The position numbers and the translations under genes are program-made. Positions 1,997-47,791 of a DNA stretch of 64,000 nt are shown piece after piece; the stretch's first letter is position 1; every line of letters begins with the position of its first letter. Under the pieces are notes generated by a model. The model ran no database searches and had not been told where the DNA came from. It saw only the letters and a list, made by a program, of their open reading frames with translations. The DNA comes from Eledone cirrhosa. Its lineage: Eukaryota. The stretch lies in assembly GCA_964016885.1 (NCBI GenBank), contig OZ024740.1, forward strand, positions 192,820,001-192,884,000. The letters are read 5' to 3'.

Positions 1997-3187
1997 CTAG
2001 AATTAAAGCCCGGCGTTGCTCGGGGTCAGTAAGTTACCAGAGTTAGATTGCACCACCCATTTTATGGCAGCACTTTTTTGTCTGCCAGGCACTGGGTGAA
2101 TGAATTGCAGACCTGGACTGCCGAAGCAGGAGCTGCGCCAGCAGTGACAATTATAGTTTCGCCTATGGATATTATCTCTGTGCAAAGAAGTGTTGAAATT
2201 TATTGTTTCACAGTACTTGTGCAACACGCGCGTAGACGATGCCATCCGAACAACAGAGCTGCGATGGAGTTGTTCTGCATGGTTGTCTAATGTGTGTTTT
2301 GTGAATTTAATACAGTAGGGACTGGTGTGATATGTGGGAGAGTTAGCTGCTGTTTCTAGCAAGTTAATGACCTCATAGAGGATATGTGTTTTCTAAATTT
2401 AAGACAGTAGGGAGTGGTGTGATATGGGGGAGAGTTAGCTGCTATTTCTAGCAGGTTTAGTGACCTCATAGAGGATATGTTTTCTAAATTTAAGACATTA
2501 AGGAGTAGTGTGATATGGGGGAGAGTTATCTGCTGTTTCTAGCAGGTTTAGTGACCTCATAGAGGATATGTTTTCTAAATTTAAGACAGTAGGGAGTGGT
2601 GTGATATGGGGGAGAGTTAGCTGCTGTTTCTAGCAGGTTTAGTGACCCCATAGTGTATATTATTGTGTATAGTAAATAAACTGATACTTCTTTCTTCCAC
2701 GTTCGTTGAGAGGTTTTAAAAAAGATTTGTCGCTATTTTTGTTGTTGTTGAATAAATTTATCTGTTGCTTTTGAATAATTGTTGTTTCGTATGAAATGTA
2801 ATAAGTTCTCTTTGTCATTGAAGTAAATAAATATTTGACCGTTCCACACTCAAAAACAAACGTTTCTCTCTCTTTCCCTCTCACTCTCTCTTCGACGTTC
2901 CTAAACGAAGTTTGTAAGCATGTATGTAGTTTTATCGAAATTTAAGGGGAGTAAACAGTGGTAATCAGATTCTATTAGAGGGGTAAAGCGTCATGTATTT
3001 AGTTTTAACGATTATTTCCATAATTGTGAGTGAGTTTGAATGAACTAAATAGTCGTTGACCTAAGTTAGACAATTTACAACCTTCTTCCAGACGTTGAGT
3101 CGAATCGGTTTGAAATTGTGCAAATGTATTAACATGGAACATGCAAACACACAACAACAACAACAATCTGCCATTTATAGATAATGA
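1997..3187 (-). mobile_element. Non-autonomous Helitron
   Basis: Minus strand begins A|TCATTATCTATAAATGGCAG followed by a GTT/GT microsatellite and ends with hairpin CCCGAGCAACGCCGGG then CTAG|T; inserted between A and T with no TSD. Confidence 0.75.
2303..2653. repeat. Tandem repeat, about 4 x 91 bp, inside the Helitron
   Basis: Unit AAATTTAAGACAGTAGGGAGTGGTGTGATATGGGGGAGAGTTAGCTGC...GGATATGTTTTCT restarts at ~2303, 2395, 2486 and 2577. Confidence 0.95.
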
Positions 3188-3429
3188 TAAATAACATTTC
3201 CAAAAAATATATATGTGAAAACAAAACAGTGCAACCAAATTATTGCAGAAAAAAATGTGAAATTTTTTTTTTATTAATTATAGTGTATATATACTGTACA
3301 TATTACTTGTAGCATACAGTAATACTAATCGTTAATACAGAATGTTACAATTGAATTTAAATAATTATGTATAATAATTATGTATAATACTTAGAGTAGA
3401 GTACTAGTATACACATCCAGAGATGTTCA

Positions 3430-3562
3430 ATAATTGTTTCTACTTTTGGCACAAGGCCAGCATTTAAATCAGAGCATTACTGGTACTTTATTTTATCGAC
3501 CCCGTAAGGATGAAAGGCAAAGTTAACAATGGGGGGATTTGAACTCAGAACATAAAGGGCCA
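3430..3562 (-). mobile_element. tRNA-derived SINE family A, partial copy
   Basis: Reverse complement of shared core TTTGCCTTTCATCCTTACGGGGTCGATAAAATAAAGTACCAG and tail CCTTGTGCCAAAAGTAGAAACAATTA. Confidence 0.85.
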
Positions 3563-3831
3563 TGTTCAATAATGACCCTTGGTATTTCACACTTTATATA
3601 TATATATATCTGGGAGTGTGTGTATGTGTGTACATGTACATGTGTATATATAGATTTATATATATGTTTGCATACATGTTTTCAACTAGTACAAACATTA
3701 TTTGGTGACTCATTCTCCCGAGGGACTTTAGACTGAAGAACTGACCACTTATTGATCTTACAAATGTCTTTAACCCATTGATATAAAAAATATTTGGCCA
3801 GCAGCTCATGTGTATGTGTAAGTATATATAC

Positions 3832-3902
<71 letters not shown>
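3832..3902. repeat. (TA)n microsatellite
   Basis: Pure TA run. Confidence 0.95.
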
Positions 3903-3906
<4 letters not shown>

Positions 3907-4234
3907 CACATGTATGTCGATGTATGCATGCATGAATGAATACAGTAAGCTATAAATTTAGACAACCAGTGATTCCAACTGTTAGCAGTATCATATATTT
4001 TTGGTTTGTATTAATTCCCTTGGGAATTGTTTGACCAAATGCTTCGCTTATTTGCTTTTTTTTTTTTAATTTCTTTTTCTTTCTCTAAGACCTTTTTTTG
4101 CAAGATATTTTTTGAAAGCAAAGCATTGGCCCCTAAAATATTAGAGTGAGACCCTGCAATGCTACCGTCTGGCCCCTGGGGCACATTTGCCATTGTGCAA
4201 CCTGGCAACCTGGCCAGTCCGCCACTGTATATAA

Positions 4235-4274
<40 letters not shown>

Positions 4275-4871
4275 ATTTATATGTGCATACTTATGCACGG
4301 GCCTAAATCTTATAACACTACTTACATGTTCTACTCATTATCTACCTTTAATAACCTCTGTCATTTCTGTTTAATAATGTTATTTACATTATTCTCAAAC
4401 ACCGGAGCTGGAAATCATTCGGTTATTCTATATATAATATTAGTCTAATGATTTTTTCTTTTAATAGCAGAAATATGTTTTTTGTCTTTGCAAGAAATTG
4501 TTCTTCTCGCTGCACATAACAACGTAGTTATCCTCACATTTCCATTACCAGTGAACGTATTCACAAACGAATGTTTCGTCTTCCTCTTTTCCATCGGTTG
4601 TAACATTTTCGAAATATTTAATTCTGTGTCCACAGATTGATCTTTTTCAGTTTCAGAAGATCCCGTTAAAGGTGAAAGCAGCGATTCTTTGCTTAAACTT
4701 TAATCTGTTCTCATAATAAATATTTACTCTTCAAATATTTCTTGTATTTGTTCTGCATGCTCTTTTATCTGAAAATGTGTGTCGAAACAGATATTGTTAA
4801 ATTTTGGGAGCGTCATACTACAAATGAACAACACATGCATATTGGTTTTCCCTTTAATTTACTATCCTAAT

Positions 4872-5072
4872 GGGCAGTGGATTGGCAGTATAGTTAGTGC
4901 ATCAGAGACACAGCTTTGCAGCATAGAATTATGGCCCTTCAAATACTGCCGAGTTTGCATTGTCATACTTGTAGGGACGATATTATAAAGCACCAGTAAT
5001 GCGCTGGAGGATATTTAATTGACGTTTCCCTCCCGCCAAATTGCTGGCTTTCTGCCTATAGTAGAAATCATT
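4872..5072 (+). mobile_element. SINE family A, diverged copy
   Basis: Head GGGCAGTGGATTGGCAGTAT, decayed core and tail GTAGAAATCATT. Confidence 0.65.
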
Positions 5073-5340
5073 ATTATAATTTCCCAATCAATTAGTTTAG
5101 TAACAGGATAACTGTTTAGTTGAATAACTGATTGTTGAAGCTCTTTCATCACATATTCTGTGACTTCCTCAGTGACAACTTTTGTTGTTACTCTGTGACT
5201 CTACTTTGTTCTCTCTTCCACCATGTTACAAGCTGGTATATGTCACAGAAGGAGATCAGCAAATGTTGATGAAAGAGCTTTGACAATCAACAACTAACCA
5301 AAAATCTGGTTATTAAACTAACCAACTGGGAAATCATAAT
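5073..5340. repeat. Fold-back element with a minimal hammerhead-like motif in each arm
   Basis: Imperfect ~105 bp inverted arms; HHR-like motifs at 5133-5177 (-) and 5241-5285 (+). Confidence 0.8.
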
Positions 5341-5853
5341 ACTTAATTAAACCCAACATGTGCTTGTGTTTTTCCTTGACAGCATTACTCTCCCGAAGTA
5401 TTAGAACTTTGACATATTTGAGGGAGATTATAAGAAATGTTATGTGTTCATTCAAGTTTGCCTTTGAAAAGCATATGGCTAAGAATTTATTTTCATTTTA
5501 TTTGATTTGCATTGAGATTTAAGAAAATGTCATATATTTACCTTGAAGTAGTAATTTAAAAAAAGGAATTGGGTGTGTAAGTTATACATTGAAGCTGTTG
5601 CAATTTATCCTATTTGTATTGAAGTGGTGATTAAAGGGAGATCTGCTGATGAATTTTGGTCAATCCCACCACTTGGCAAAATTTAGATTTGTTTCGAGGT
5701 AATACATTTTTTGGAGGGAATTTTTCATTTGTTAATTTGACCAATACTTAACTGTAAAGGCATGAGAGAAGTTAAATATATATATATATATGTTATTGTG
5801 CTCTTTCTTTCTAGTTTCTTTCTGTCTTTGTTTATTTCCTTTCTCTGCTTTAG

Positions 5854-5897
5854 CCACACGGATAGACACTTTCTTTGGAGACAATCACAATAAACAG
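5854..5897 (+). CDS. Candidate coding exon of an unidentified gene (xTRIDTFFGDNHNKQ)
   Basis: Long polypyrimidine tract ending TTTCTCTGCTTTAG, open frame, donor CAG|GTAGGT. Confidence 0.4.
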
Positions 5898-6170
5898 GTA
5901 GGTCCGGATTTTGTTAAATCACTTTTCAAAACTGTTTGCATAGTTGTTCTTATTTATACATGTAAGTTTGTGTGTATATTATTTATTCTTAATTATATCT
6001 TGCATTCATATGTGTATATTATATTAGATTTATTTGTAAGCAAATAATGACATTAAGGATTATGTCTTTTATGCCACTTTTTATGTGACGTTTTGGTTAT
6101 TTTTTTAATGGCTTGGGTGTTTTCTTGATTATTATTGTTTTTGTTTTGGGTTTTCTGTTGCATTGCACAG

Positions 6171-6191
6171 ATTAGACTTCATGATGCATAG
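6171..6191 (+). CDS. Candidate terminal coding exon (IRLHDA*)
   Basis: T-rich acceptor ending TTGCACAG; phase 0 is compatible with the 5854-5897 exon. Confidence 0.3.
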   Translation: MRLHDA

Positions 6192-6860
6192 CATCACATC
6201 ATCAAGATGGATAGTTTGAAGATTTAAAGTTAAAAGAAAATGGGAGGAGGTGGAGCACAGTTTATTACATAATGGGTCATAGTCACTGCAGATAGTAATA
6301 GCTTTGGCTTTAATATATAACAGTTACATAATATGACATCTGCAACATGGTAATACATGTTTTCCCTATTTGGTGTTTGTTGTGATTCGGTTATGTATGT
6401 TGAGTAGAAAGATCTGTGGTCCGCATTTGATTTGTCGAATTTGATGGTTGTGTACAGTTTGTTTTGACATGAATAACACCGTGTAACAGAAAAAAAAATG
6501 TTTCTCTGTTCCTGGCTTGTAATCACTTTTTTTGTGTTGCTTAGGTCCCAAATAAATTTAAAAAAGTGCTATTAAACAGTTAAAAGTTGGGGTTTGTAAA
6601 AATTCTAAGCTATTCACTAGAATTATTTGTATGCTGGATTTTACGTTGTATGTAAGTTTAATTTGCTTATGTTAAATGATTTTTTTTATATATGTTTCAG
6701 GTTAAATTAAAATTATAAAATAAAGAGTAATAACTAAAGAAAATTATAAAAGTTCAATAAAGTATAAAATTGTTAAAAAGTGGATTAAAGAGATTTATTG
6801 ATACTGGATTTTCGCACCCTGAATAAAGGGTAAGTTGTGTTTTAAGCATTTGTCTCCAGG

Positions 6861-7970
6861 ATGAAGAAGTGGAATACGGTCAAGGAGGAAGTGCAGGTGA
6901 TATATCAGAGAAGTCAACACGAACCTTTATCAGGCTTTTACACTCTTAGGGATGGCCTCTGCTTCTGCCATGACGTGCCAGGACTGTTTGACGTTATCGG
7001 GGTGCCGTTTGTGCCAGAGGAGTGGTGGCTATTTATAGACAGCTACACCACAAGTTTGAAGGCTGTCCTCCTCCACAATGGAAGCAAGTTCCCGACACTG
7101 TCCCTAGCTCATTTAGTCTGCCTGAAGGAAGATTACTACACTGTGAAAGTCCTCTTAGAAGCTCTGCAATACAACCAGTACAATTGGGAAATCATTGGAG
7201 ACTTCAAGATGGTGGCTTTTCTGCTTGGACTCCAAGGAGGCTTTATCAAATTCCAATGCTTGCTCTGCCTTTGGGACAGCAGAGCCACCTCTGACCACTA
7301 CAAAAGAAACAACTGGGAGCAGCGAACAGAATTTGTAGTTGGGACCCAGAACGACATGTGGGAGCCACTGGTTGGTCCCAGGATTGTGCTCATGCTGCCA
7401 CTGCACATTAAGTTGGGGTTGATGAAGCAGTGTCTGAAGGCTCTCAACCAAGAATCAGCCGCTTTTAAGTACCTTCTTCAGTTCTTCCCCAAGTTATCTG
7501 AGGCCAAAATCAAAGGTGGAATTTTTGTTGGCCCTCAGATAAAGAAGGTGTTTGAGTCTACTGAGTTCTCCAATAAGCTCAATAGGATTGAGAGAACAGC
7601 ATGGAACTATTTCAAGGCTTCCTGGAAGCCCTTAACAGCATGGAACTGTTAAGGGCTTCCTAGGCAACTACAGAGCTGAAAACTACCAGCAACTGGTGCA
7701 GGATCTGATAAAAGCTTTTGGCACCTTGGGATGCTGGATGTCACTTAAACTCCATATACTGGACGCTCATCTGGAAAAGTTCAAGCACAATATGGGCGCC
7801 TACTCAGAAGAACAAGGCGAACGATTCCACCAAGATGTGAAAGAGATAGAGCGTAGGTACCAGGGCCACTACAATAAAAAAAATGATGAGGGACTATATC
7901 TGGGGGCTAGTGCGGGAATGCGACCTGGACTACAACCGCAAATCCAGGAAATCCAGTCATTTCTGATGTG
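6861..7970 (+). pseudogene. Chapaev-type transposase, N-terminally deleted and frameshifted
   Basis: LFIDS..SLKAVLLHNG, WEIIGDFKMVAFLLGLQGG, CLLCLWDSR, LPLHIKLGLMKQ, MSLKLHILDAH, SEEQGERFHQD; family assignment from recalled motifs. Confidence 0.82.
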
Positions 7971-8179
7971 TAGAGGTTGCTTTATAAGTGTTATTGGTTT
8001 TTACTTGTTTGCTTTTGATAAGCTTGTGTAATAAAATACATATATATTGTGTTAATTTAATTATAAGTACTGATAAATTTTTTTTAAATGTGTTTTTTCT
8101 TGAAAATTATGAAAATTTCGAAATTTTAAACTCCTGACCACAAACCCAAACTTCTGATTAAATAATAGTCTTTTTTTAT

Positions 8180-8558: not shown

Positions 8559-8767
8559 AATAACTTTAAGTCGTTTGGAAGCCTCGACAATGCAAATGGG
8601 TAAATCTCCGGGTAAATAGGTCCGGTGGTGGAGAGAGAGATGTAAGTGGGTGTACGTTGAGATGCGTGGTGTGTATAAGATGTGTGAGATGTGTAGAATG
8701 AAGAGTATAAAGGATAGAATAAAAATAACAACACAAGAGACAGTTACCTTCGGAGAGATTTAATAGT

Positions 8768-8803
8768 CCCTATATATTTCGGATTCACATCCATCAACTG
8801 GGG
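8768..8803 (-). ncRNA. Degenerate minimal type-I hammerhead ribozyme in the PLE 3' region
   Basis: Minus strand CCC-CAGTTGA-T-GGAT gtga ATCC-GAA-A TATA T-A-GGG; stem I CCC/GGG, stem II GGAT/ATCC, palindromic stem III; core differs from CUGAUGA at two positions. Confidence 0.6.
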
Positions 8804-9204
8804 TTTTTTTCAGGGGTGGGGGAAAAGGTTGTCTGTCGGACAGGTCCGGAATGCGTCCTTCGCTGTTTGTTGTTTTGAATATCTGAGGTATTCGGCAGAG
8901 CGCGCATGCGCGTGAAATGAGGTCGTTCGTACAGAGGTCAGCGGCCGAATGAGGGAGTGGGAAGGCGCTAGCTGTCAGTCCATTCTCTGCCTGTTTGTTA
9001 AATGTTACTGTGTGTGCGTGTGTTGTTGTCTCGCTTGAGTGTGTGTGTGTGTGTGCGTGTGTTATTGCCTTGTTCCTCTGTATTGGCAGTGTAGTATGTT
9101 CGTATGGTGGAATGCTACTGTGTGTGTGTGTGCGTGTGTGTGTGTAGTTGTCTCGTTTGCGTGTGTGTGTGCGTGTGTTGTGTGTTGTTGCATCGCTTGT
9201 TAAC

Positions 9205-11601
9205 TTAAACGAGCCATCTCATTTCGCTTCTCTCTGATCGGTTGTTTATTTGCGGTTGCAATCGTTGATAAAAAGCGCTTCCCTGATACGTAACGTGCCG
9301 ACGTTTCTTTCAGTCGCTAGAATTGTGACAATGGGCCTTCCGTCTTTGTTTCCGCATTTGTCTATGTGTTTCCGGAAAGACGAGGCCCTGGTTTTAGTGT
9401 GTTCCTTGATCCGGATGTGCAAAGGTCGAATTGTGCTACCTATGTAGTATTGGTTGCACCTGTCACATTCTATCTTATACACAACGTATGTGCGTAGGCA
9501 ACAGTTCGCATGGCGTATCGGGCAGTCTCTGAGGGAGCATGCGTCAGTAGATTTTCGGGTTTCTTGGAGAGGTATCTTCTCAGGGAGGGGCCCGAGTGGG
9601 CCAGGTGGATGTCGAGGCCCTCCCTCCGTATAGCCTTGCGGATAGCGTTGGTGGTTTTCTCGCCCAGGTGTGGCATTTTAAGGAAGCACTTGCCTTGGGT
9701 GCTTCTCTGTCTCTTGCGTCTCGTGTCTCCTATTCTGTCTGTGATCGAGGTAGGGTACCCGTTCGTCTCCAGCACCTCGAGGAATCGCTTGGTGTGAGGG
9801 ACACCACTCGCGGGATCGCTGCATCTGTTTTTGATTCGCGCGATCTCCTTCGTGATGTATCCTCTTTTGGCACTGTTAGGCAGGGCGGACTTGTAGTGAA
9901 CGAATAGGTCCCTGCAGACTGCCTTTCGGTAGAAGTTGCAGTGAAACCTTCCCTGTTCCGTGATGTTGATTCGGAAGTCGAGGAGGGCAAGTGACCCGTC
10001 TTCGTTGGGGTATTCAACACTGAAGTCAATGTTCACGTCCGTGTTGTTGAACGTCTCATAGATTCTGTTCGCCGTGTCTTGGGAAGATGTGAGGATGAGG
10101 ATATCGTCCACGTACCTTGAGAAAAAGGCTACGGCGTTGGGGTGGCAGGCGTTGAGTGCCTTGCGTTCGAGGTTGTGCATGTAAGAGATCGCTAGCACAC
10201 CTGATAGGCTTGATCCCATGGGCAATCCCGAGGTTTGTTGGTATATTTGGTCAAGGAATCCGAAGTAGGTGTTGTCGACGACGATGGATAGGAGTTGGTG
10301 GATGTCAGTAGTGGTGAGCCCGAAGCAGTGTAGGTCGGTGGATTGGACGCGTTCCATTAGTATATTGATGGCCGGGAGTGCCGGGACCGAGGTGTAGAGA
10401 GCGACTACATCAAGGCTGAAGGCATATCTGTTATTCCTTCTGGTGTTGGGATCCATATGATGCAGGCGCTTCAACACCTCCTCGGAGCTGTTAACGTGTC
10501 CCGGCAAGGTGTCTAAGATGGGTTTGAGTATTCTGGCAAGGAGCCATGAAATTTTGTAGAGTGGTCCCTCCACGCTCGATACGATGGTCCTGATTTTCAG
10601 GTCGGGTCCCTGTTTGTGTGTTTTCACGAGGTGGTAGAAGGCGGGTAGTCTGCTGTTCCTCGTGAGGAGGTTGTATCTCAGCTTCTTCGGGAGCTTCCGC
10701 CGGTCGCAGATGTTGGTCCAGGCGCCGTTGATGTGCTCTTCTATCTGCGCGGGAGTGATTCCCGTGACCTTGGAGTAGATGTTGTCATCGTCAAGGTGTT
10801 GGAGGGCTAGGGTGTTGTAGGCCTCTCTGCTGATAACGCAGAATTATTTTCCCTTGTCGGAGGGGAGATAGATGAGGTTCCTCGATTTTAAGTTGGAGAG
10901 AGTGGTGAGTTGAGATTTGGTGAGGTTATGTGTTGTGCGTGTGTGTGTTTGTGAAGTATATCCGAGATGGAGTGTTTTAGCCTGATGAGTTTAGTGTCGA
11001 GTTCGTGGTTGGTGGGTGGGGGATGGAGTGGATTGTCGGGGTGGTAAGTGGGGAACTTGGGGTGGGTTGCGTCGACGCTGTTATTTGCTGTGGCGCTGTT
11101 GATGGCGGTCACCCATTTAAGTTGGTAAGCGGCTCGACAAAAGTTGGCCTCGATGTTAAGTTTGAGTCTGTCGTCGAGACGTTGTGTGACGATGAACTTA
11201 GGTCCGAGGTGTAGGAGTTTCAGCTCGTCGCTCGTGAGAGTGCCGGTTAGGTCGGTGACCAGGTGCGTCGCATCGTTGAGGTATGGCTCGGTGTTGGTGG
11301 TTGCGGCGGTGGCGGTTGTTAAGTTGTTGTTTTCCACGTGGTTCTGGTCCGTCTGTTCGTTGGTGTCGATGTTCTCGTTGTGGCGTTTCGATAAGATCCA
11401 CTCATATTTTCGCTTGAGCCGTTTTTTCTCGTATTGGACTCTGGAGTGGTAGCACTGGTCGATTGCTTTAGTGATTTTCAGGAGCAAGTCTCCGGGTGCT
11501 ATTGGCAGTCGATGTGTCCACTCTGTGAGTGTCCGCTTATGGACGTGTAATTGGCGGTTGAGATGTCTGAGGATCCGTTTAATACACGTGCGATGTATGC
11601 G
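9205..11601 (-). pseudogene. PLE RT/GIY-YIG ORF of the left arm, disrupted
   Basis: ORF pieces 10888-11694, 9470-10627 and 9246-9482 joined by frameshifts and one stop. Confidence 0.9.
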
Positions 11602-11617
11602 ATGTATGCGATGTAAC

Positions 11618-13736
11618 CGCATACATCGCACGTGTATTAAACAGATCCCGAGACATCTCAACCGCCAATTACACGTCCATAAGCGGACATTCACAGAGCG
11701 GACACATCGACTGCCAATAGCACCCGGAGACTTGCTCCTGAAAATCAGTAAAGCAATCGACCAGTGCTACAACTCCAGAGTCCAATACGAGAAAAAACGG
11801 CTCAAGCGAAAATATGAGTGGATCTTATCGAAACGCCACAACGAGAACATCGACACTAACGAACAGACGGACCAGAACCACGTGGAAAACAACAACTTAA
11901 CAACCGCCACCGCCGCAACCACCAACACCGAGCCATACCTCAACGATGCGACGCACCTGGTCACCGACCTAACCGGCACTCTCACGAGCGACGAGTTGAA
12001 ACTCCTACACCTCGGACCCAAGTTTATCGTCTCACAAAGTCTCGACGACAGACTCAAACTCAACATCGAGGCCAACTTTTGTCGAGCCGCTTACCAACTT
12101 AAATGGGTGACCGCCATCAACAGCGCCACAGAAAATAACAGCGCCGACGCAACCCACCCCAAGTTCCCCACTTACCACCCCGACAACCCACTCCACCCCC
12201 CACCCACCAACCACGAACTCGACACTAAACTCATCAGGCTAAAACACTCCATCTCGGATATACTTCACAAACACACACACGCACAACACATAACCTCACC
12301 AAATATCAACTCATCACTCTCTCCAACCTATAATCGAAGAACCTCATCTATCTCCCCTCCGACAAGGGAAAAGAATTATGCGTCATCAGCAGAGAGGCCT
12401 ACAACACCCTAGCCCTCCAACACCTTGACGATGACGACCTCTATTCCAAGGTCACGAGAATCATTCCCGCGCAGATAGAAGAGCACATCAACTCCGCCTG
12501 GACCAACTTCTGCAACCGGCGGAAGCTCCCGAAGAAGCTGAGATACAACCTCCTCACGAGGAACAGCAGACTACCCGCCTTCTACCACCTCGTGAAAACA
12601 CACAAACAGGGACCCGACCTGAAAATCAGGCCCATCGTATCGAGCGTGGAGGGACAACTCTACAAAATTTCATGGCTCCTAGCCAGAATACTCAAACCCA
12701 TCTTAGACACCTTGCCGGGACACGTTAACAGCTCCGAGGAGGTGTTGAAGCGCCTGCATCAAATGGATCGCGACACCAGAAGGAATAACATATATGCCTT
12801 CAGCCTTGATGTGGTCGCTCTCTACACCTCGGTCCCGGCACTCCCGGCCGTCAATATACTAATGGAACGCGTCCAATCCACCGACCTACACTGCTTCGGG
12901 CTCACCACCACTGACATCCACCAACTCCTATCCATCGTCGTCGACAACACCTACTTCGGATTCCTTGACCAAACATACCAACAAACCTCGGGATTGCCCA
13001 TGGGATCAAGCCTATCAGGTGTGCTAGCGATCTCTTACATGGACAACCTCGAACGCAAGGCACTCAACGCCTGCCACCCCAACGCCGTAGCCTTTTTCTC
13101 AAGGTATGTGGACGATATCCTCATCCTCACATCTTCCCAAGACACGGCGAACAGAATCTAAGAGACGTTCAACAACACGGACGAGAACATTGACTTCAGT
13201 GTTGAACACCCCAACGAAGACGGGTCACTTGCCCTCCTCGACTTCCGAATCAACATCACGGAACAGGGAAGGTTCCACTGCAACTTCTACCGAAAGGCAG
13301 CCTGCAGGGACCTATTCGTTCACTACAAATCCGCCCTGCCTAAGAGTGCCAAAAGAGGATACATCACGAAGGAGATCGCGCGAATCAAAATCAGATGCAG
13401 CGATCCCGCGAGTGGTGTCACTCACACCAAGCGATTCCTCGAGGTGCTGGAAACGAACGGGTACCCTACCTCGATCACAGACAGAATAGGAGACACCAGA
13501 TGCAAGAGACAGAGAAGCACCCAAGGCAAGTGTTTCCTTAAAATGCCACACCTGGGCGAGAAAACCACCAACGCTATCCGCAAGGCTATACGGAGGGAGG
13601 GCCTCGACATCCACCTGGCCCACTCGGGCCCCTCCCTGCGAAGATGCCTCTCCAAGAAACCCGAAAAATCTACTGACGCATGCTCCCTCAGAGACTGCCC
13701 GATACGCCATGCGAACTGTTGCCTACGCACATACGT
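11618..13736 (+). mobile_element. Penelope-like element, right arm (inverted copy; ends at the start of GIY-YIG)
   Basis: Reverse complement of ~9485-11601 with scattered substitutions; ORF pieces 11471-12412, 12592-13161, 13444-13779; runs into an AC/AT microsatellite. Confidence 0.93.
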
Positions 13737-14365
13737 ATGCATACACACACACATATATGTATGTATATATGCATATTGAAATGCAAATATATGTACATAA
13801 AATACATAGATATATAGATACACACACACCATATAATTATATATATTTATTATGAGTTGTCATAGCGGGATAGTAACCATATTTGTGTTTCCTTTCATAT
13901 ATCAAGAAATATTAATATTAATATGCATGGATATATATGTATATCATCATTTAACCACCATTCTTCTTGCTATATATTAATATGAAGTCTTAACTGTCAT
14001 TTGGAATTTCCATGCCTGCATATTTGGTTACTTAATTCATTTTTAATTCTAAACCATTTTCAACATTACAGTTTTTCAACTCAAAATGAAAAGATGTTCA
14101 ATACAACTTTTGTTGTTAACATTTAACCTGCCCTCTTCTCAGTCAGGGAGAGAATATTTGCATAGAGTTTAAGAATTACCTTGTAAAAGCAGAAGTAACC
14201 ACTGCTTGCGTCATTTTCTCCTAGGCAAACTAAAACTGAATTAAATAGAATGAGTGAATGTAAAGAATGTATGCATTAAAATCAATATCACAATTGTTGA
14301 AAATGGAAATACTCAAATTAAAAGTCAAGCAGATTCTGAATCTGCAAAACATTCATTATTTTACT

Positions 14366-45959: not shown

Positions 45960-47791
45960 ATGTGTCAAAGAAAACAGTGATATTGTCGGGGAGAAGTGCG
46001 TCCTGAATGATGATGGTGTACTTGCCATCACTGACGCTGATAAGAAGGTAGCTTGGAAGTGTCACTACGAAAGGCTACTAAATGAGGAGAATAATTGGGA
46101 GAAAGACAGTCTCCTCCACATCGAACCAATAGAGGGACCAGCAGTGCAAGTTGAAGGTAGTATAATAAGTAAGGCGATCAAAGACATGAAGACGGGCAAG
46201 GCGGCCGGGCCTTCGGAAATAGTTGCCGAAATGCTGAAAGCATCGGGAACGGTTTGACACACTATGGTCACCCGGATAGTAAACCAAGTCATACAGAATG
46301 GGGTCGTTCCGAAGGACTGGTGCAGCAGCATCATCATTAACTGCTACAATGGTAAAGGTGATGCCCTAGATAGGGGAAACTATAGAGGCATTAAATTAAT
46401 TGACCAGGTCATGAAGGTCACAGAAAAAGTAATAGTGCAACTAATCAGAGAGCGAATTCATCTAGATGAAATGCAGTTCGGGTTTGTGTCAGGTAAAAGT
46501 ACAACAGACACTCTTTTCATTGTACGACAGCTACAGGAGAAGTACCTAGCTAAAAGTAAACCCCTATACTTAGCTTTTGTTGACTTGGAGAAAGCCTTTG
46601 ACAGAGTACCCCGCTCGATTATCTGGTGGGCCCTTAGAAAACTAGGTGTTGATGAATGGCTTGTGAGAGCTATACAAGCCATGTATAAAGAAACAGCCAT
46701 CAAGGTTAGAATTAACAACGAATGTAGTGAAGAGTTTAGCGTAAAAGTTGGTGTTCATCAGGGCTCCGTCCTTAGCCCCCTACTATTTATTATTGCCCTT
46801 CAGGCTATAACAGAGGAGTTCAAGACCGGCTGCCCATGGGAACTCCTATATGCAGATGATCTAACGCTCATAGCTGAATCAATGGCTGAATTAGAGAAGA
46901 AATTCCAAACATGGAAGCATGGCCTAGAATCAAAAGGCCTTAAAGTTAACTTGTTTAAGACTAAAGTTCTAGTTTGTAGGAAGGAAAATAGGGCACCGGT
47001 CCCATTTGGGAAATGGCCATGGTCAGGAGTAGGTAGAAACTCCATTTTATGTCCCAAATGCAAAGTATGGGTACATAAAAGATGTAGTGGGATCACAGGT
47101 AAACTATCTAAGAATATAGATTTTATATGTGGCCGGTGCTCTGGTGCAATAAGTAGCAGGAAGTGCCCACAGAATACTAACTCATTCCATTGCACAGATG
47201 GTTCTATAGAAATAGTGGACAGCTTCCGTTACCTGGGTGATAAAATCAGCAGTGGGGGAGGGTGCTCTGAAAGTACAGTAGCTAGGGTCAGAACAGGATG
47301 GAAAAAGTTCAGAGAGCTTATACCACTATTGGCCGCTAAAGGGTTCTCTCTAAAAATAAAGGCAGGCTGTATGATGCCTGCATACGAACAGCAATGTTAC
47401 ATGGCAGTGAGACCTGGCATTGTGTGCAGAGGATATACGCAGACTGGAGAGAAACGAAGCTTGCATGCTCCGCTGGATGTGTAATAGTAACATACGTGAA
47501 CGGCAAAGCATAAATGTACTAAGGGAGAAATTAGAAATAAGAGGGATCAGATGTTGTTTACTCGAGAGAAGACTACGTTGGTATGGTCACGTGATGCGCA
47601 TGAAAGACGACAGCTGTATCAAAAAGTGCAGGGCAATAAAAATAGATGGTAGCCACGGAGTAGGCAGACCCAGGAAAACCTGGGACGACTTGATAAATTC
47701 CGACCTCACACACTTACACCTCTCCAAGACAATGTCACTGGACCGAGAGCTTTGGCGCTACACAGTAATAGAGAAGACCCGCCTTACCTAA
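45960..47791 (+). pseudogene. RTE reverse transcriptase ORF with inserted PHD finger; one stop and frameshifts
   Basis: QFGF, FVDLEKAFDRVP, GVHQGSVLSPLLF, YADD, KTK, CPKC.VWVHKRC..CGRC, FRYLG. Confidence 0.93.

Follow-up and report, generated by a model that had tools for sequence, protein, structure and literature searches.

An inverted pair from an abundant minimal-hammerhead repeat family in Eledone cirrhosa, probably old, Penelope-derived and now inert

Two hammerhead arms and their surroundings

The window analyzed here is a 64-kb stretch of the Eledone cirrhosa genome (64,000 nt; contig OZ024740.1, positions 192,820,001 to 192,884,000 of the forward strand), in which two minimal type I hammerhead motifs lie on opposite strands, the left copy at 5133..5177 on the minus strand and the right copy at 5241..5285 on the plus strand. 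Both had been written out in an earlier note on this DNA, and both strings are present letter for letter in the sequence. In the minus arm, the core CTGAGGA (5172-5166) is canonical and is followed by an extra A between positions 9 and 10.1 (at 5165), by stem II and its loop (5164-5148; 6 bp, the first of them G.U, and a 5-nt loop) and, downstream of stem II, by GAAA (5147-5144), GAGC (5143-5140), U16.1 (5139), and U17 (5138). Its stem I, with 5177-5173 as the 5' strand and 5137-5133 as the 3' strand, is broken: three of the five pairs form, the two that are lost being those adjacent to the core, with substitutions at 5136 and 5137. In the plus arm, stem I is complete (5241-5245 with 5281-5285, 5/5 pairs), stem II has 6 bp (5255-5270), GAAA is found at 5271-5274 and U17 at 5280, and the core (5246-5254) is damaged, U4 being replaced by A together with one further change or an extra base. 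Thus, the type I core (C3UGANGA9, G12AAA, and U16.1-H17, in type I order) is seen in the minus arm and in the majority sequence of the repeat family described below, and is lost from the plus arm through the change at U4; conversely, helices I and II are both paired beside the core in the plus arm and in the family majority (4-bp stem I, 6-bp stem II), but stem I is not in the minus arm.

The minus arm is unlikely to be a chance match: a descriptor scan of the 64 kb gave one match as good as this arm, and of 200 shuffled windows only 2 contained any such match. Matches as good as the plus arm occur in 46 of 200 shuffled windows, so that this arm, which taken alone is not beyond chance, is recognized only through its homology to the minus arm (35/44 aligned letters identical over the motif). 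The region was also compared with four of the six sequencing runs listed, aligned to 4700-5760 at 80% likeness; X1 and X2 come from one sample, and X4 and X5 are RAD reads from one other study. A contig of X1, which may be the source sample of the window itself, covers 4896-5174 without any difference, and the lesions of the minus arm are therefore not an assembly slip. Over the plus-arm core, there was no exact run piece among the pieces listed. No Rfam hammerhead match was obtained at E up to 5 (3000-8000) or at the gathering score (whole window), in a database that may not cover minimal motifs. Low-score matches to Rfam microRNA families were set aside, since they reflect hairpins and TA repeats.

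The earlier note was right about the damaged stem I of the minus arm and about the intact stem I and damaged core of the plus arm, but it confined the element to 5133-5285, and the inverted repeat is longer. It occupies approximately 4800-5177 and 5241-5400, and a SINE-like insertion breaks it up. Alignment of the arms extends for about 95 nt, with 72 of 93 aligned letters identical (77%). Their orientation, assigned from the sense strand of the hammerhead, is head-to-head, with 5'-truncated copies whose 3' ends point outward. Between them lies a spacer (5178..5240, minus strand), in which the 5' (upstream) part of the left copy takes up at least 5178-5218, other run records sharing letters of their own through 5193-5218; within it, no homology between the arms was detected (26/54 aligned letters). 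The left copy hence reaches further at its inner, 5' end than the right copy does. On the outer side, the first downstream flank of the left copy (5079..5132, minus strand) is identical at 36 of 48 aligned letters to 5286-5333, the beginning of the downstream flank of the right copy (5286..5400, plus strand), whose homology to the left copy fades near 5400.

The left copy is then interrupted by an old SINE-like repeat that is foreign to the element (4873..5078, plus strand) and has more than 10 other copies in the window, to eight of which it is 74-80% identical over aligned letters; no tRNA was found in the 64-kb window by ARAGORN. Beyond this insertion, the left copy resumes at 4800..4872 (minus strand), where 46 of 68 aligned letters match 5333-5400, a score reached by none of 2000 shuffles and none of 3744 window tiles, and joints in this part are seen in other run records. 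Because the SINE-like repeat splits the left copy and homology resumes on its far side, the inverted pair predates the insertion. The divergence of the SINE-like copy is close to that between the arms, which fits old neutral decay, and the motif itself is only slightly better kept between the arms (35/44) than are the flanks (36/48 and 46/68).

A possible outer (3') end of the left copy, at 4736..4813 (minus strand), overlaps a 45-50-bp stretch common to a far more abundant repeat, and its link to the hammerhead family is partly resolved. This stretch (4765-4813) is shared with a repeat whose abundance is about tenfold that of the hammerhead motif (bin 4772-4807 has an X1 depth of 174,940), and it has no other copy within the 64-kb window. 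Extension of the inverted repeat to 4606 and 5563 was rejected as not significant: 7 of 300 shuffles score as high in the outer alignment beyond about 4800 and 5400, where any one-sided 30-40-bp tail or target-site duplication would lie, and only 4800-4872/5333-5400 was accepted. Of note, a pyrimidine-rich tract that ends in AG has been retained at corresponding aligned positions of the two copies (4818-4835, minus strand; 5365-5383, plus strand), about 90 element-nt downstream of the hammerhead, and in the left copy it is followed by an ATG and a 30-codon frame. The tract and the frame may correspond to a 3' splice site and the start of an ORF in the parent element. When the frame downstream of the left copy was used as a protein query, with its two stops read as X, nothing was found among longer proteins, which is a weak test.

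Other mobile elements and repeats are present in the window. A coding Penelope-like element at 8700-13780 carries a reverse transcriptase (PF00078) and a GIY-YIG endonuclease (PF01541) and forms a young inverted pair of its own, in which the head-to-head copies share 97% identity across 2,118 nt; its 3' region is rich in microsatellites. Two decayed copies of a LINE-type reverse transcriptase with a PHD-like finger (355-1755 and 46006-47480) are 67-69% identical, and a tandem repeat of about 92 nt at 2290-2660 has four copies that are 88-91% identical. Broken transposase-like frames at 6846-8031 (plus strand) have no Pfam match; in the Atlas, the first of these frames groups with unnamed eukaryotic clusters (0.95-0.97), and its proximity to RAG1-type RNase H clusters (0.89) is no more than a lead.

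The repeat family in sequencing runs

The earlier note expected other genomic copies, and these are abundant. The summed contig depth of X1 reaches 11,106 at 5132-5167 and 5,836 at 5276-5311, while pieces identical to the locus have a depth of 6-13. This places the motif family at a depth about 1,000-fold, i.e., about three orders of magnitude, above single copy, although run depth cannot be read as copy number and loci close to a restriction site are over-represented among RAD reads. Depth falls away on both sides of the motif, to 214 at 5096-5131 and 29 at 5204-5239 around the left copy and, along the right copy, to 2,514 in the remainder of 5276-5347 and 28 at 5348-5383. The motif is thus better represented among run records than its adjacent flanks, in line with the reading of the earlier note, and this is expected if it was selected in the parent family.

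The records also speak to the lesions of the minus arm. Letters that restore stem I at 5136 and 5137, the same as those of the plus arm, are carried by 1320/1418 and 1382/1418 reads in X4, by 1190/1261 and 1237/1261 reads in X5, and by 36 and 42 contigs in X1 (94% and 97% of depth), that is, by 93-98% across run records. Within 5138-5176, which spans U17, loop III, stem II, and the core, no near-fixed other letter was found among the variant rows listed; a further 179 rows lie beyond that listing and may conceal mixed letters at the core or at position 17. Since nearly all records restore the stem I that is broken in the minus arm, the family motif is a complete minimal hammerhead, in sequence. 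At 5177, most records differ from the window (155/169 to 186/206 minus-strand reads), and the majority stem I is therefore 4 bp rather than 5 bp. A complete motif is the most likely ancestor of each arm, because the family majority combines the core and stem II of the minus arm with the stem I letters of the plus arm. This agrees with the proposal of the earlier note that the ancestral element had an intact hammerhead on each strand.

About 1,200 reads per RAD run pass upstream from the motif into shared sequence that is not inverted. Single contigs show plus-to-plus joints, from 5122 to 5287 and from 4809 to 5267, which may represent further inverted pairs whose inner ends lie elsewhere. Run depth and joints together describe a large dispersed family in which some copies form opposite-strand pairs. 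A pattern scan gave no stretch in viral contigs and, with the stricter pattern, none in metagenome contigs. A looser pattern gave 15 metagenome loci, which were discarded as chance matches: none of the 15 has at least 4 pairs in stem I together with at least 5 in stem II, and none has similar flanks.

Origin of the pair and rival explanations

We consider it likely that the locus is an old inverted pair from this abundant minimal-hammerhead repeat family, which is most probably derived from a Penelope-like element, and that it is now inert. The arms would be 5'-truncated fragments of the terminal repeat (pLTR) of such a retroelement, inserted together as an inverted pair in head-to-head orientation, with their downstream ends outward. 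In the active parent, cleavage of the element RNA by the complete minimal hammerhead would have required a dimer of two tandem motifs and would have been weak, judging from the behavior of its published counterparts (PMC4209133). After insertion, the SINE-like repeat would have entered the left copy and both copies would then have decayed, the left copy losing two stem I pairs and the right copy its core. In their present state, neither of the arms is expected to cleave by itself, and a read-through RNA over both arms is predicted to form one long hairpin in which the hammerhead fold is destroyed (-100 and -104 kcal/mol on the two strands, z about -10 to -11); in such an RNA, stem II is predicted to form with a probability below 0.001 on either strand.

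Inverted 5'-truncated copies are reported as typical of insertions of endonuclease-positive Penelope-like elements (Craig et al., 2021; PMC8557442), and the head-to-head pair at 8700-13780 shows such an inverted-pair insertion process in this genome. That element was nonetheless rejected as the parent of the arms: it has no DNA similarity to them and no minimal hammerhead in the descriptor scan, and tblastn with it found nothing at the arms. At 8893, on the strand opposite to the coding element, there is a core-like string with two mismatches, which does not fold as a hammerhead. An ORF with reverse transcriptase and GIY-YIG domains upstream of the motif is absent at this locus, as expected for 5'-truncated copies. 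Among the results against this explanation of the locus are that no reverse transcriptase or endonuclease linked to the hammerhead family was found, that loop III is not palindromic, and that both stems II are fully paired. As no coding partner was found, the case for Penelope parentage is built on motif and geometry.

The last of these results relates to the main suggestion of the earlier note, that the two arms complement each other to give one complete hammerhead. Complementation served well as a guide to the ancestral sequence, but it is not a special pattern, being common under neutral decay. In a neutral decay simulation (no indels, 8-16% substitution per copy), 17-24% of the pairs that kept one intact enzyme half showed complementary lesions. 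Both stems II stayed fully paired in 8-29% of simulated pairs, and their full pairing here is the one mild result against pure neutrality. Stem II does pair in both arms, with 6 bp each, but to read its difference in sequence as covariation depends on the alignment and on two sequences. Since the arms are on opposite strands, they cannot share a sense transcript, and folding predictions suggest that they are probably not a working pair.

Among the other explanations, the family could be a hammerhead-bearing non-autonomous retroelement, i.e., a non-LTR retrozyme or a SINE-like derivative, and not a terminal repeat belonging to a coding Penelope-like element, which we regard as unlikely. The high abundance and the lack of a coding partner found for the family both suit such an origin, and retrozymes are reported to be non-autonomous derivatives of Penelope-like elements (Li et al., 2026; 10.64898/2026.07.22.740005). 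Like the animal non-LTR retrozymes (Cervera and de la Pena, 2020; PMC7229834; 10.64898/2026.07.22.740005), the family has a type I hammerhead within a short, abundant, non-coding repeat. However, those retrozymes are described as head-to-tail tandem monomers with canonical type I motifs (PMC7229834), their hammerheads having a helix I of 6 bp and a helix II of 4 bp (PMC4209133), whereas the helices here are of the minimal Penelope type and the copies are inverted; no tandem copy, and no head-to-tail monomers with a canonical motif, were found within the 64-kb window.

A further reading, which we judge quite improbable, is that the locus is a DNA transposon of foldback or MITE type and the arms are its long terminal inverted repeats, the resemblance to a hammerhead being incidental. 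In its favor are a long inverted repeat around a short spacer and an outer part that overlaps a very abundant unclassified repeat. Against this, the hammerhead consensus is matched beyond chance (2/200 shuffles) and the motif is better represented among run records than its adjacent flanks; moreover, the reads that leave the motif upstream in both RAD runs enter shared, non-inverted sequence, the inner junctions vary between records, and the outer ends are unmatched.

It is also very unlikely that, whatever its origin, the locus has been retained because the host uses a long double-stranded RNA hairpin made from it, for instance as an editing substrate or a source of small RNAs, with the hammerhead irrelevant to its function. 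The fold predicted on both strands (see above) is strong, but any inverted repeat would fold alike. The differences between the arms comprise 6 that are wobble-compatible on the plus strand, 7 on the minus strand, and 8 transversions; with 6 versus 7 there is no strand bias, and a hairpin selected through strand-biased wobble pairing was rejected. In addition, arm divergence equals that of the neighboring SINE-like copy, and no host gene was identified around the locus.

Finally, a selected split hammerhead, in which divergent transcripts from the spacer would reassemble in trans through a non-palindromic helix III with tandem A.G pairs, the left arm giving the core and stem II (the enzyme half) and the right arm the cleavage site and stem I, is hardly credible: dimeric hammerhead geometry would permit it, and the left-enzyme/right-substrate complex is predicted to have 7 stem I pairs and -11.0 kcal/mol (versus -5.3 for left/left), but slipped pairing via the AGCU palindrome is predicted to be 4 kcal/mol more stable, lesions of this kind arise at the neutral frequency given above (17-24%), published dimers cleave weakly (PMC4209133), hundreds of other copies could serve equally well, and transcripts over both arms would fold back on themselves.

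Comparison with known minimal hammerheads

The derivation from a Penelope-like element can be set against the minimal hammerheads (min-HHRs) described for metazoan Penelope-like elements, in whose pseudo-LTRs they lie (Cervera and de la Pena, 2014; PMC4209133). These are defined there by a longer helix II (>4 bp), a helix I of 4-5 bp, and an unpaired base between positions 9 and 10.1, and all three features are found here. The family further shares with them the type I order, the CUGANGA core with one extra base at 9/10.1, the GAAA-N..N-UH segment, and AU-rich flanks. Abundant dispersed copies and opposite-strand pairs about 100 bp apart are likewise common to both, dual motifs on opposite strands about 100-700 bp apart having been ascribed in the same paper to truncated elements.

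Two details of the arms that could seem atypical fall within the published set. U17 had been singled out in the earlier note as usually a poor cleavage base, but by our count it occurs in 24 of the 56 rows of Fig. S3 of PMC4209133, all three mollusc rows included, and is no oddity among Penelope-type minimal hammerheads; the NUH/NHH rule is reported as confirmed in PMC3884650. In place of G10.1-C11.1, the minus arm has G.U and the plus arm A-U. As G.U at 10.1/11.1 is present in 8 of the same 56 rows, again by our count, it is by analogy a tolerated departure, and the Clonorchis sinensis (1) row carries both U17 and this G.U.

Loop III is where the family differs. The 15.2/16.2 pair (G-C) is present in both arms, and loop III is a 2-nt AG that is not palindromic in either of them, whereas in PMC4209133 loop III is described as palindromic where present. 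The helix III of a dimer would therefore contain tandem A.G pairs. In the same study, no cleavage was seen for the monomer assayed and weak cleavage for dimers and trimers. The non-palindromic loop could be used to test the need for a palindrome in the formation of min-HHR dimers. Beyond that, the locus adds one more abundant minimal-hammerhead family and leaves knowledge of Penelope-like elements unchanged. It would have greater import only if both lesions were conserved across species and the arms were to cleave in trans.

As to its taxonomic setting, the 56 rows of PMC4209133 comprise no cephalopod, the molluscs among them being Lottia (twice) and Crassostrea, and a search of the octopus and cephalopod hammerhead literature, which is a weak test, found no description of the family among the papers listed; the octopus repeat annotation of PMC13282606 may have a bearing on its novelty. 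In contrast to the elements of PMC4209133, no link to a coding element was found for the family here. With respect to the endonuclease-positive insertions of PMC8557442, both copies are here cut down to non-coding ends and a one-sided tail of 30-40 bp is not definable, but the arrangement is alike in its head-to-head copies, its outward 3' ends, and its unequal 5' ends. Inverted pairs of minimal hammerheads are already known from other animals (PMC4209133), and loop III is the small departure of the present pair from them.
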